The notes below the pieces were generated by a model. That model saw only the letters and a program-made list of their open reading frames with translations. It was not told the origin of the DNA and did not search any database. This document shows, one piece after another, positions 49,993-54,553 of a DNA stretch of 62,432 nt. The stretch is from a virus (taxonomy: Duplodnaviria > Caudoviricetes), in IMG/VR virus record IMGVR_UViG_3300037882_001611, positions 1 to 62,432 of that record. The stretch is one strand, 5' to 3'. The position numbers and the translations under genes are program-made. Each line of letters starts with the position of its first letter. Within the stretch, counting starts at the first letter, position 1.

Positions 49993-51978
49993 TTAGAACT
50001 GAAGGTTATAGGCACGGCGATCACCGGACCCGGAAGTGACAATGACAACACAAGTATCGTCACGAGTCGAAGAGAAGCCCAGACCAGACAGACTGTCTGG
50101 GATAGGTTCACACTTGGTTTTGGAACCAAGCACCTCAAACACCTTGCGATGTTCGTTGAGGTCCGAACGGAGAAATTCGTTATAAATTCCCCGAGTTGGT
50201 TCTGGGTTATTACACCCAGAAAGTATAAAGAACCAGTGTTTATTGCCCTTACCAATCTGTCCATCCCAATGATTTGGAGACAACATGAGCGTATCGACCG
50301 GAACGAAAGTTTCTGTCTTGATGCCCCATTTATCTTTTGAACCAGTGGAAGAAACCAGTTTCTTGTTGACCACCAAATTCTTGAGTTGGCCAGCGAACAT
50401 TTCGAATTGAAAGACTTCATGTTGTTCTTTGGATTTCATTTCGAAAGCATAAGTATAGATCTTGCTTTCACCATTAGCCCAAAGTTCGAGAGTGAAACCC
50501 GGATCACGGGTATGACGCTTCGAGAACTGATGGATTGAAACAGCATACTTACCGTCACGAGGACGTTTCCAGCTCAGATTTTCGACGGGATCGACTTTGT
50601 TATGGTGATTAAGGCTGTTTGTATCAACATCGAGAATGCTCTTCGTATTATGATAATAAATATGTCCTTCGGGGCATTGAGCGTGCATGTCAAGGTCATC
50701 ACCATTGTACCATGCAAGTGAAACTCGCAACGGCACTTCGGTGTTACCACCTGCACGCTTGACCTTTTCCTTGATGGAGTCGGTGACTTCACCATCATAG
50801 GACCATGCAAATTGGTTATCCCATTGGAACAACCGAGCAGGATCATCTGAACCAGTGAGACTGACAAAGTTGTTGAGATGGCGATTTTGGACCATGAGAT
50901 CCATTGCTGTAGCAGTCGGCAGCACATCCTTGAGGAAGTCTTCGATTTTGATGGTTTGAGCGTCTTTGTATGACGGTAAGGGTTTGGTGGCCATGGCTGG
51001 AGCCAGAATCTCCATCAAACCACTGTCTTTCATCTGTGATTTTTTGGTTCGATTGGCCCAGAGAACATTATTGATGCTGACATCAGAGATTCGAGCAAAC
51101 CGACGATGTACAGCAGCTTCGAGACCAAGGCTCTTCAACTTATCGACAGCTTGTTCAGCCATTTTGGGCGTGATGAGAGCAGAGGTTCGCTTGTAGTTTT
51201 CGGGGGCTACCTTTGATTCGAACATTTTGACGGCATCTTCCAGATCTACACCTGTAGACAGGTCAGTTAGAAGAGTACCAATAACAGTATTGCGGAAACG
51301 AGCTTTCGGATCACTGACGTTAGCCCAGATGAAAGCATCACGATCTGAAGCTTCATTATACTGCTTCTGGATCTTTTGGAATGCCTTGACTGAGGCAAGA
51401 TGTTCTTTACCACGATAGATAGATTTGCTCTCAATGAGATCAATCACCGTTTCGAAGGATGCGGGAGTCAGTTCTTCCAGACCACGTTTGAAAACATGAA
51501 CGGTAGTGTTCAGATCACCACGATCCTTATCGGGAGTTGTACTGAAATGCTTGTCAGCAACTCGACCGTAGAAGTGATGCCACATGATAATTTCATGGTT
51601 GTCGGCATTGCTTTCGTGGCTGTATTGGCGTTCCTTGGTTCGGAATACACTGATAATGGGAGCCTGACGAACCAATGCCTGCATTGTACGTGCAACAGTA
51701 GCATAGGGTTCAGGTAGGTCAACCAAGTTATCCCAGACGGTGAGGCGAAGATGGGTGATCGGATCAATGCCCACGAGCAAACCGAGGCGTCGGATAAACG
51801 ACTTACAGCAGTTGCAGTCATGGACCGTTCGTTCACGAAAAATAGGATCAGTGCCTTCAGGGAAAGCAGCTAGATAACTGGCGAAGATGTCTTCGACATC
51901 AACGACGAACAGTTCATGCTTCTGCATGGCTGCATATTGGGCATGAACTGCCTTTGAAAAGATTTGAAATTCACTCAT
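49993..51978 (-). CDS. Large conserved phage protein with HDCNCC motif and YfaP/DUF2135-like domain
   Basis: YLAAFPEG...HDCNCCKSFIR; LRVSLAWYNGDDLDMH...LDVD...PVEN; start MSEFQ at 51978 follows GGAG. Confidence 0.65.
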   Translation of the reverse strand: MSEFQIFSKAVHAQYAAMQKHELFVVDVEDIFASYLAAFPEGTDPIFRERTVHDCNCCKSFIRRLGLLVGIDPITHLRLTVWDNLVDLPEPYATVARTMQALVRQAPIISVFRTKERQYSHESNADNHEIIMWHHFYGRVADKHFSTTPDKDRGDLNTTVHVFKRGLEELTPASFETVIDLIESKSIYRGKEHLASVKAFQKIQKQYNEASDRDAFIWANVSDPKARFRNTVIGTLLTDLSTGVDLEDAVKMFESKVAPENYKRTSALITPKMAEQAVDKLKSLGLEAAVHRRFARISDVSINNVLWANRTKKSQMKDSGLMEILAPAMATKPLPSYKDAQTIKIEDFLKDVLPTATAMDLMVQNRHLNNFVSLTGSDDPARLFQWDNQFAWSYDGEVTDSIKEKVKRAGGNTEVPLRVSLAWYNGDDLDMHAQCPEGHIYYHNTKSILDVDTNSLNHHNKVDPVENLSWKRPRDGKYAVSIHQFSKRHTRDPGFTLELWANGESKIYTYAFEMKSKEQHEVFQFEMFAGQLKNLVVNKKLVSSTGSKDKWGIKTETFVPVDTLMLSPNHWDGQIGKGNKHWFFILSGCNNPEPTRGIYNEFLRSDLNEHRKVFEVLGSKTKCEPIPDSLSGLGFSSTRDDTCVVIVTSGSGDRRAYNLQF

Positions 51979-52028
51979 TGTTGTTCTCCGGGTTTGGACC
52001 GATAATGGTTTGAAAAAACAAACCAAAT

Positions 52029-52063
52029 AAAAAATCCCACGCCAAATGAATGACGTGGGATTT
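52029..52063 (-). terminator. Intrinsic terminator ending the ncRNA/tmRNA transcript
   Basis: AAATCCCACGTCA / TGGCGTGGGATTT stem followed by TTTATTT on the - strand. Confidence 0.75.
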
Positions 52064-52400
52064 CTTCTAACAATTCTGTTGCAAGGCTGTTAGAAGCCCC
52101 TATCTGCTACCTATTAGGCAGCAAGACGAAGTGCCATTACTGGCGAATTGTCGTTGGCATTTGTTGCTAACTATCCCGTCACGGTGGGCCATTCCGGATC
52201 GCGTTCAATTTCAGTCTTTCGGATCGAGACTATTTCACCCCCATCAACTGCCCTGTGGGCTCGCCCGTCGAGCCCGGACATGCACTCAGAGAGGCACTTC
52301 CTGCTTTGGCGATCATTCCCACAGGACAGATGGTGGAGGTGGCGGGTACCGCCCCCGCGTCTCCGATTGTCTTACGTTGATCGAATTACGATCATATCCT
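52064..52400 (-). ncRNA. ssrA: tmRNA, circularly permuted two-piece (alphaproteobacterial type); tag ANDNSPVMALRLAA
   Basis: Acceptor piece ends GAC-GCGGG-GGCGGTA-CCCGC-CACCTCC-ACCA (CCA end at 52331); 88-nt intervening segment; coding piece starts GGGGGTGAAATAG at 52242 and pairs with CACCTCC, giving G3-U70; tag frame 52158-52117 followed by TAA TAG. Outer ends are approximate. Confidence 0.93.
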
Positions 52401-52419
52401 GAAGAATAATGCCCCCTAG

Positions 52420-53798
52420 AGCTTTAGGCAAGAGGGGTGATAACGGTGCATCATTCTTCTGAATTTGCAAACTCGGATGGCCTGCTGGTATATTGCTACA
52501 TTGAAAGCACAGGGACCAGCAGGGCGCACCAAAGATGAACCCGCAAGCATTGGAGTGTTTCAGATCCCATAAATGGGGTACGTTTCTCTTCCAATGCAGG
52601 CTTCGTCATTCCTAAATATCGTTGTATTCAGTAACTAATTTAACGAGTTGAGTCTGATAACTCAATACAGCTAGTCAATGCTGTATCCCCTGTTCGGATG
52701 CCTATTCAGGCAAATTTCGTGCTTTAGAGTTTATTATATTGGACTATCCAAAGCTGACCAATGTGCTTGCTTCGATGTCTCTAGCCACAATGTAGCTTCG
52801 TTTCTTTCGATGCCACGGAGATACGTGGGTTGTTTGGATCCGAGGGAACCAACCTCGCTAAGCCACCCTTAGGGCCGATCTACGTCTTAGGCCGCTCTCG
52901 TTAGTAATGATAGCTCCCCTGTGACCGAGCCGTCCTCAATTGCAGAACTTAATCTACGGAGAGGATGCATTGGGATCGAACCAATACCATCACCAATTCA
53001 AAAGGTGTTCGGGTACATGGACTCTAGGTTACACCCGTATGACCGTCAATTCTCGTTCCACTTGAGGTTTTGTCAGTGCCCGCCTGACTACACAATGCCG
53101 CTTAACGTCCATCTATTCACAGAATAGTGTTAGGACGACGGGAGCATGAATAACTCTGGTTCACGGAGCTTCTAATTGAGAGCACAACTTTCAATTTCGA
53201 TGCTAATTTCCTAACCAGTCTCCGTGTTCCCCAATCGGTACACTATGAGCAGTTTCCAACCGTTTCGATCTTCCTTGTCCTCCGGTCATGACTCCGGACG
53301 ATTAGAAGACACTGGTTGAACTCTTATTTCCGTTTCCACCCACGGTGCTGAGAGCGTATCATCAGACCCGGTGGATCTAGGCTTATCCAAAGTACCAGAG
53401 CCATGGTGGCGCCTATCTGGTTCATCCCAGCAACGGTCTGAATGGTCCTAACAATCATTCAGACTTTTTCTTGGTTTTAGAACATCGCAAAAAACCAATA
53501 TTCTCATCTTAGAAGGCCGGACCACCGCTTCGTTGCGACTTCTCGTGTTCGGCATGATCAAGAACCAAATTTCGACCTGCTACTATTAGGTGTTTAGGTC
53601 TATCAGCCTTCAAAAATGAGAGTGACCGTCATCGTTGGGAGCTACCCAATCACATCTGCCCAGTCAAGCCACCTGAATGTTTAATAAGATCTTTGAGGCC
53701 CATTCAGACTGAAGGTTTGAAGCCTCAAGAAATCACGCTATTCCTGCTGTGTACTTTAGCAGTTTTTTATCTATTGCAATAGATAAACATCTAAGCGT
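52420..53798 (-). ncRNA. Unassigned large structured non-coding region (one large or several smaller RNAs)
   Basis: No - strand ORF of 60 aa or more over ~1.4 kb in an otherwise densely coding genome; many stems; flanked by a hammerhead and tmRNA. Confidence 0.6.
52962..53037 (-). other. Degenerate tRNA-like element
   Basis: Perfect T-arm ATTGG-TTCGATC-CCAAT preceded by a 5-nt spacer and a 17-nt anticodon-like arm; D-arm and CCA not evident. Confidence 0.35.
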
Positions 53799-53844
53799 GG
53801 GTATGACCATTTGGTTTCGTCTCATAAAGACTCATCAGATACCC
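53799..53844 (-). ncRNA. Hammerhead ribozyme, type I
   Basis: - strand GGGTAT CTGATGA GTCT-TTATG-AGAC GAAA CC-AAAT-GG TC ATACCC: stem I, CUGAUGA, stem II, GAAA, short stem III, GUC cleavage triplet. Confidence 0.88.
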
Positions 53845-53910
53845 TGTATTTTTAGTTTGCCGCCCTGACTCTGGGGGATTGAGCCAGAGCGACAAACCAA
53901 AAAACCAGAC

Positions 53911-54417
53911 TTATTCAGTCACTGCCAGTTCAGCGGTTGGTACAGCGGTTGGTTCAACCAATGGTGCTGCTTGGGTCTGAACTCCAGATTCTGTAATCGT
54001 GGAAGCATTGGAAACAGTGTCCTTGGCTTTGACGCCAAGACCGATCTGTTTTGCCAATGCAGCACGAGTGCTAGAATAGTTGGGAGCCGTCATCGGATAA
54101 TCAGCGGGAAGATTCCACTTGGTGCGATACTGATCCGGCGTCATGCCATAATGCGTCATCAGATGGCGCTTGAGCATCTTCAGTTTCTTGCCGTCTTCAA
54201 GGCAGACAATATAGTCAGGCTTGACCGAGGAACGGATCGAAACTGCTGGTTCCTGAGCAACGACTTCAGGTTCGGGAGCCTTCTGCGTGTTGTTCAAGGC
54301 ATCATAAGTGCTCTGGATGAGGCTTGACAGTTCATCGGCACGGATGGTGGTGTTCGATACAAAAGCCGAGACGATACCTGTGGTCATTTGCAGAATTTTG
54401 AGTTCAATGTCATTCAT
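53911..54417 (-). CDS. mucR: MucR/Ros family zinc-finger transcriptional regulator
   Basis: IVSAFVSN, PAVSIRSSVKPDYIVCLEDGKKLKMLKRHL...YRTKWNLPADYPMTAPNYS...LAKQIGLG; ATG at 54417 follows AGGAG. Confidence 0.94.
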   Translation of the reverse strand: MNDIELKILQMTTGIVSAFVSNTTIRADELSSLIQSTYDALNNTQKAPEPEVVAQEPAVSIRSSVKPDYIVCLEDGKKLKMLKRHLMTHYGMTPDQYRTKWNLPADYPMTAPNYSSTRAALAKQIGLGVKAKDTVSNASTITESGVQTQAAPLVEPTAVPTAELAVTE

Positions 54418-54447
54418 TTCATTTCTCCTGTGTGAGCAAATACTCAC

Positions 54448-54479
54448 AAAAAAATGGCTACCCCGAGAAGGGTAGCCAT
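54448..54479 (-). terminator. Intrinsic terminator upstream of mucR
   Basis: ATGGCTACCC / GGGTAGCCAT stem plus T7 tract on the - strand. Confidence 0.75.
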
Positions 54480-54553
54480 GTCAAGATATATTGGAAGAAA
54501 AAATTGCTTATGCGGTACAGGTGATTGCTACCGTATCCGTTTTGGCACCTTCT

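Follow-up and report, generated by a model that had tools for sequence, protein, structure and literature searches.

Here, we propose that a 46-nucleotide (nt) element on the minus strand of a phage genome is probably a functional type I hammerhead self-cleaving ribozyme. The element lies at positions 53799-53844 of IMG/VR virus record IMGVR_UViG_3300037882_001611 (Caudoviricetes), of which positions 1 to 62,432, the whole stretch of DNA that was analysed, are referred to as the window. The phage is N4-like, encoding a virion RNA polymerase of 3447 amino acids (aa; phrog_2206, 2455.9 bits) along with two small N4-like RNA polymerase subunits. By sequence criteria the motif is a type I hammerhead, failing the Rfam score threshold only. 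More tentatively, the hammerhead could be the 5'-processing module of an undescribed, conserved and structured phage RNA, whose covarying hairpins span about 175-240 nt (53798-53625, possibly extending beyond) and which heads a cassette-like non-coding island in a small N4-like clade. If true, this would give a phage hammerhead a concrete role, unlike the usual cutting between cistrons.

Read directly from the sequence, the minus strand from 53844 to 53799 is GGGUAU-CUGAUGA-GUCUUUAUGAGAC-GAA-ACCAAAUGGU-C-AUACCC, and the whole motif is delimited by this reading, by a descriptor match, by a covariance model termed R1 (described below) and by the minimum free energy (MFE) fold. Stem I consists of GGGUAU (53839-53844) pairing over 6 base pairs (bp) with AUACCC (53799-53804), a strand assigned from sequence and comparison that would supply the first bases of the predicted 5'-OH product. 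Between the two strands stand the core CUGAUGA (C3-A9, 53832-53838), the 13-nt stem II hairpin (GUCU-UUAUG-AGAC, 53819-53831, with 4-5 bp and a short loop), the core nucleotides G12 A13 A14 (53816-53818) and the stem III hairpin (53806-53815), made of the pairs A15.1-U16.1, C-G and C-G and the loop AAAU. The topology is that of type I, with stem I open and stems II and III closed by loops, and the hammerhead core is complete: C3 U4 G5 A6 U7 G8 A9, G10.1-C11.1, G12 A13 A14, A15.1-U16.1 and C17, the last being an H17 (not G) at the cleavage site. The GUC at 53807-53805 places the predicted scissile bond after C17 (53805) and before position 1.1 (A 53804), as follows from applying the hammerhead consensus to the sequence. 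No open reading frame (ORF) of at least 40 aa overlaps the motif. A preliminary description of this DNA, made from the letters alone, had named a type I hammerhead with a complete core, cut between 53805 and 53804; the motif is present exactly as described (by sequence reading and R1 match), and the cut agrees with the placement of GUC. A second CUGAUGA, at 53365, failed the type I descriptor and was rejected as a hammerhead.

The motif is conserved at the corresponding position in three relatives: L052, a syntenic 73-kb record that is 99% complete and whose RNA polymerase subunit is 68% identical to that of the window, and L095 and L096, which come from a second metagenome scan and share 79-92% DNA identity with the window. 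Their hammerheads score 47.4, 46.4 and 43.6 bits with R1, respectively. Over the four related sequences the core (CUGAUGA as well as G12 A13 A14) is invariant, the stem II hairpin is identical, and the three stem III pairs are kept in 4/4. Stem I is paired in all 24 cells (six pairs in four sequences), two of the pairs having changed on both sides and another by wobble. Pair 3 is G-C in the window and U-A in L052, both sides having changed; pair 5 is A-U in the window, G-U in L095 and G-C in L096, the kind of series that selection on an RNA helix yields; and pair 6 goes from U-A to U-G in L096. The L052 ribozyme differs from that of the window in just two places, stem I pair 3 and the loop of stem III (GUAG instead of AAAU), and its upstream flank is essentially unalignable. 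Overall, the flanks are 6-50% diverged around the conserved ribozyme. DNA contigs from 3 runs of 3 studies have flanks that differ from the window by about 6-10%, and, among the differences listed, the only positions changed inside the 46 nt are those that form pair 5 (53840 T>C with 53803 A>G); these listed differences are the best-supported ones, and low-depth variants within the motif are possible.

In addition to its close relatives, the motif belongs to a populous class of phage hammerheads. IMG/VR was scanned with a pattern in which nothing was fixed but the core, the arms of stem II and 'ACC', yielding 30 loci. In every one of them (30/30) the seed is part of a complete type I hammerhead, whose stems I and III pair although the pattern did not specify their strands. 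These loci contain 78 hammerheads (58 distinct), frequently several per contig, and stem I is exactly 6 bp in 77 of the 78. Among the distinct hammerheads, an A flanks stem I in 48/58 on the 5' side and in 46/58 on the 3' side, and the stem II hairpin has 13 nt in 47/58. The window is alike in its A flanks (ACA/GGGUAU...AUACCC/ACG), its stem II hairpin within the 12-15 nt of the class and its significant R1 score, and is thus a member of this class with a 6-bp stem I. It departs in the hairpin of stem III: the 10 nt of the window and L052 are the shortest, the other 57 distinct members having 14-61 nt. By eye, loop II does not look complementary to the flanks of stem I across the class; that stem I is strictly 6 bp and flanked by A residues may, by comparison with known structures, hint at a non-Watson-Crick contact. 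The loci themselves (L035-L064, e.g. L042:2233-9483, L059 and L056) hold up to about 10 copies per 14 kb.

From this class, 41 distinct members with a stem III hairpin of at most 22 nt, excluding the window and L052, were aligned. The core C, U, G, A, G, A is invariant across the 41, and 9/13 pairs change on both sides (3/4 pairs in stem II), giving a covariation score of 0.638 against 0.015-0.052 for slid partners, with pairing partly required by the descriptor. Stems II and III, which are constant within the lineage of the window, covary class-wide, and with the stem I changes of the lineage each of the three helices around the core has covariation support. R1 is the covariance model built from this alignment, and it gives the window motif 49.1 bits (E 1.2e-10), a score that is partly inflated by a seed pattern taken from the window's own core and stem II; the next-best match in the 62 kb reaches 13.7 bits. 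The Rfam models, at gathering score, call only 1 of 40 descriptor-defined class hammerheads (12 loci), so that the threshold rather than the motif seems to be limiting and the failure of Rfam to call the window is typical. Rfam gathering thresholds thus miss nearly the whole of a populous class, and phage annotation will under-count such ribozymes.

The distribution of the hammerhead at this position is narrow. It is present as a single copy in the window, where our own descriptor finds one site, and in the 99%-complete genome of L052. Over 62 source sequences R1 matched L052 alone, with no hammerhead in 32/32 MucR-encoding viral loci or in 29/29 other N4-like RNA-polymerase loci; this absence points to a recent, lineage-specific acquisition by a small clade and not to a general N4-like feature. 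A pattern that fixed the stem I ends had 0 matches in a metagenome scan and, in viral contigs, matched only L052, and a distant blastn search of 52000-54500 against cultured phages returned 2 records, both within mucR only. Beyond viruses, a hammerhead of the same class is carried by a contig (L097:618-682, plus strand; R1 46.4 bits) from a metagenome-assembled genome of the cyanobacterium Chamaesiphon, the sole match of the seed pattern in a collection of species-representative genomes.

What does the hammerhead travel with? Directly after the cleavage site, on the minus strand, lies a conserved hairpin-rich RNA of about 175 nt (53625-53798), recognised by its identity to L052 and by the four-sequence alignment; roughly 230 nt of downstream sequence are 65% identical to L052. 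In this alignment (A3), 15 of the 47 pairs predicted downstream of the hammerhead change on both sides. Across all 61 pairs, 14 of them the hammerhead's own, 17 do so, a count that 0/500 shuffles reach and that stands at 2-3 in slid controls, with the reservation that the downstream structure was predicted and counted on the same alignment of four sequences, three of them close relatives, which favours structure. The contigs add, among the differences listed, a compensatory pair of changes (53780 T>C with 53773 A>G) in the first downstream hairpin (53766-53787). This hairpin is a perfect palindrome with compensatory changes in relatives, and a DNA site is a possible alternative for that hairpin alone. 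The preliminary description had the ribozyme setting the 5' end of the downstream RNA, and this fits the co-conservation of the hammerhead with some 175 nt of structured RNA in the four sequences.

The downstream RNA (53625-53798) has no match to an Rfam family. A small ORF downstream was considered and rejected, for translation of the window and L052 in three frames revealed none whose start is conserved between them. An inverted repeat between 53795-53817 and 52020-42, 74% complementary, was likewise judged to be at chance level, exact 9-mer seeds being expected several times per 1.9 kb by our own estimate. A near-invariant block lies at about 53640-53670 and holds a 15-mer that, among 94 loci, occurs in the window and L052 only.

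Upstream, in contrast, the neighbour has been swapped. In the window it is mucR, a minus-strand gene for a ROS/MucR-family transcriptional regulator (53911-54447; Pfam PF05443, ROS_MUCR, E 6.5e-49), and between its stop codon and the hammerhead stands a perfect 23-bp hairpin with a 9-nt loop (53849-53903, minus strand), found in the MFE fold; the fold of 53690-53915 has a z-score of -6.6. Three of the related sequences have mucR in this place; L052 has a gene for an arginine transfer RNA (tRNA-Arg) about 360 nt upstream of the hammerhead, and neither mucR nor the long hairpin. The connection to mucR in the preliminary description is therefore incidental, L052 keeping a syntenic hammerhead with tRNA-Arg and without mucR. 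The tRNA-Arg gene (L052:6530-6606, minus strand, anticodon TCT) sits where the window has mucR, and the L052 hammerhead is followed by about 1.8 kb without minus-strand ORFs. As for mucR itself, the GTG start annotated at 54447 is probably too far upstream, there being an in-frame ATG 10 codons on.

The hairpin and the regulator gene nonetheless suggest another purpose, namely that the ribozyme serves mainly to form the 3' end of the mucR messenger RNA (mRNA), with the 23-bp hairpin, the ribozyme body and the cyclic phosphate set against 3' exonucleases and the downstream product a by-product. A hairpin of 23 bp is long enough for an RNase III-type substrate. There is no terminator-like site between mucR and the ribozyme, and the 23-bp hairpin carries a U-run and an A-run inside its stem with no U-run after it on either strand. 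Hairpin and ribozyme also occur together in L095 and L096, and a role for ribozymes in 3' untranslated regions is suggested for bacterial twisters and hammerheads in passages of PMC6765202. We nevertheless regard this purpose as unlikely: the ribozyme persists in L052 without mucR and without the long hairpin, one contig (X3) skips 53847-53883 and thus lacks 37 nt of the hairpin while retaining the ribozyme, and it is the downstream RNA that is co-conserved. The two roles are compatible and not exclusive of each other.

The conserved partner of the ribozyme is thus the downstream RNA and not the upstream gene, and for this reason we read its main purpose as the provision of a context-independent, defined end for a non-coding RNA. 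By this account the ribozyme likely gives the structured RNA a defined 5'-OH end regardless of the upstream neighbour. Minus-strand transcription would pass through mucR, the 23-bp hairpin and the 46-nt ribozyme. Its likely unit would run from after one terminator-like site to another, each a hairpin with a T-run on the minus strand found by consensus scan only: a strong one directly upstream of mucR (54454-54479) and one after a transfer-messenger RNA (tmRNA) gene (52029-52066). Accordingly bounded, mucR, hammerhead, island and tmRNA may form a separate transcription unit or one that depends on read-through. The ribozyme would fold during transcription and part the upstream message from the downstream RNA. 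Hammerhead cleavage proceeds by in-line attack of the 2'-OH of C17 on the next phosphate, so that the RNA on the upstream side ends in a 2',3'-cyclic phosphate and the one on the downstream side starts with a 5'-OH. Here the mucR message would be released together with the hairpin and the 40 nt of the ribozyme body, ending in the cyclic phosphate, and the downstream product would begin with a 5'-OH at A53804 and reach its hairpins within 17 nt. Once cut, the 6-bp stem I would melt, allowing the two RNAs separate fates. Given the properties of RNase E, a 5'-OH end that leads into hairpins would probably be poorly attacked in 5'-monophosphate-stimulated decay, and the idea of the preliminary description that such an end would disfavour this decay is reasonable.

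Several observations weigh against a functional ribozyme in this role, beyond the limits already stated for the R1 score, the contig differences, the downstream covariation and the absence from other N4-like loci. Stem III has just 3 bp. Although the MFE fold of the 46-mer is the hammerhead fold (-9.8 kcal/mol) and is retained within a context of 226 nt, the 46-mer is no stabler than its shuffles (z -0.97; 29/200 fold equally well), and the hammerhead fold makes up only about 11% of the ensemble, with a centroid that lacks stem III. The precedents for a short helix III act as tandem dimers (in passages of de la Pena et al. 2017, PMC6155905), and the window has no second copy. Its placement is atypical as well: 51 of 64 distinct class hammerheads lie at most 60 nt upstream of an ORF of at least 60 aa, often just after the previous stop codon, whereas those of the window and L052 have no such ORF within 400 nt downstream, and the window motif does not stand in the class-typical position directly before a ribosome-binding site and start codon. 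Most class hammerheads occupy the gap that separates a stop codon from the following ribosome-binding site. Lastly, the curated Rfam models score the motif below threshold (22.6 bits against a cut-off of 48.5).

The short stem III raises the question of whether the ribozyme works alone. It might be a conditional or assisted ribozyme, slow as a monomer through its 3-bp stem III, with cleavage that would come under regulation during infection; it could depend on high Mg2+, a chaperone (protein or RNA), the pairing of two transcripts through an extended stem III, or release from downstream pairing. At 10 nt, as in L052, its stem III hairpin falls below the 14-61 nt found elsewhere in the class, its fold is marginal by z-score and centroid, two copies of ACCAAAUGGU could pair at 8/10 positions by our reading of the sequence, and the dimeric action of short-helix-III hammerheads is documented in part of PMC6155905. 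The documented dimers, however, use tandem copies on one RNA, and here there is one copy per genome, in the window as in L052, which excludes dimerisation by way of tandem copies; the preliminary description had noted dimerisation as something that short stem III variants can need. RNAalifold does prefer an 11-bp helix between the 5' half of the ribozyme and a conserved block about 180 nt downstream, and the cells of this helix are 93% paired in the four sequences; yet the helix is without covariation support (its score is equalled in 86/500 shuffles, and both sides have changed in 1 pair only), and it needs some 180 nt more of transcription, when the ribozyme can fold immediately. The short stem III is moreover unchanged in the four related sequences, which argues that it suffices. 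All told, we consider the need for such assistance to be quite doubtful, and a ribozyme that gives the downstream RNA its 5' end remains our preferred reading.

How surprising is the motif on its own? Our own type I descriptor was run on 300 dinucleotide-preserving shuffles of the window: a loose version matched in 15/300 (mean 0.053 per window), and matches equal to the real motif (stems of at least 6/4/3) numbered 3 in total over the 300. The chance probability from the window alone is thus about 0.01, a modest case that is not decisive by itself, and it is because of the comparative evidence that we judge the motif to be beyond chance. Rfam, which the preliminary description had looked to for a hammerhead match, does not provide one at gathering score, the tmRNA being the sole find in the window. 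In E-value mode, over 451 nt scanned, the best hammerhead match is to Hammerhead_3 (22.6 bits, E 0.021) in a mis-permuted alignment. Matches in this mode to mraW (30.2 bits, E 0.001), SAM-II, DUF2800 and leader families are at chance level and were not credited. That the element is a chance match or an inactive relic, conserved as a DNA site or as a plain set of hairpins, is most improbable, for even with window-alone statistics of about 1 in 100, Rfam scores under threshold and inactive hammerhead-like sequences existing in phages (in passages of PMC3088659), the class model R1 returns an E-value of 1.2e-10, the core is invariant in four related sequences despite flanks that have diverged by 10-50%, three stem I pairs have changed only in ways that preserve pairing, and a DNA site would not need RNA-type G-U intermediates such as those at pair 5 of L095 and pair 6 of L096.

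Beyond the conserved RNA, the minus strand continues into a variable region. After the hammerhead there are about 1.35 kb without ORFs of more than 68 aa, and the remainder of this stretch (52448-53624, with ORFs of at most 68 aa) is variable and cassette-like. At E <=1, Rfam finds nothing in 52448-53624 beyond the tmRNA and weak, chance-level matches, and sliding-window fold z-scores over the island show nothing clearly strand-specific apart from the hairpins and the tmRNA; a single 120-nt window (53320-53201) has a fold z-score of -3.7 on the minus strand and -1.6 on the plus strand. A block of 180 nt (53154-53333) is absent in L096 and in one contig (X1). The island is followed by a two-piece (permuted) tmRNA gene of alphaproteobacterial type (52065-52447, minus strand; Rfam RF01849 at 106.2 bits and RF04321 at 99.8 bits), on which ARAGORN made no call. 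Neither L096 nor L052 has the tmRNA, and one X1 contig runs from 52044 straight to 52469 without it, which suggests a recent insertion; PMC9004378 mentions two-piece tmRNAs carried by phages. The island looks assembled from cassettes, and the 'ncRNA island' of the preliminary description does not hold up as one conserved unit, both the tmRNA and the 180-nt block being missing in close relatives. After the island comes a gene for a 677-aa protein of unknown function (49993-52026, minus strand; phrog_1735, 747 bits; no Pfam family), for which tblastn found no homologue in the examined part of L052.

How, then, does the window motif compare with known systems? With the type I hammerhead of Rfam (RF00163, clan CL00010) it shares the core, the three-way junction, the open stem I and the predicted cut after C17. 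It differs in falling under the Rfam cut-offs, with its best clan match to the type III model, in a stem I that is a bare 6 bp without an internal loop, and in a stem III of 3 bp. RAGATH-1 (RF03152) resembles it in that stem I is open and a hairpin closely precedes the ribozyme; with 17.7 bits (E 2.1; cut-off 56.3), the window motif is not a member. Avocado sunblotch viroid and newt satellite DNA also carry hammerheads with a short helix III, which act as tandem dimers according to passages in de la Pena et al. (2017; PMC6155905); these have a type I-like topology and a weak helix III in common with the window motif, but the window has one copy per genome, no repeat unit and no circular RNA context.

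The closest likeness is to the phage hammerheads. Those found in phages and prophages lie next to genes and undergo cleavage both in vitro and in E. coli, according to part of the text of Perreault et al. (2011; PMC3088659), and as far as that text goes they, like the phage class described here, share with the window motif a 6-bp stem I with A flanks, a 13-nt stem II hairpin and a phage genome. A search of the literature, which did not extend to the supplementary hammerhead lists of earlier surveys, found nothing linking a hammerhead with N4-like phages. Although hammerheads abound in phages, their role there and in bacteria is still called open in passages of PMC6765202 and PMC6155905, the former proposing the processing of polycistronic transcripts. 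The class norm of placement before ORFs fits such cutting between cistrons (as treated in passages of PMC3088659 and PMC6765202), and the window motif differs: class members usually occur several to a contig and near ORFs, whereas this one is single and stands before about 1.35 kb without long ORFs. Two points of interest follow: the unusual position of the ribozyme, in front of a structured non-coding RNA that is conserved, and a populous phage subclass that lies under the Rfam thresholds. With its single copy, swapped upstream neighbour and conserved downstream RNA, the locus is also a clean case, in which the effect of cleavage on one defined RNA can be measured.

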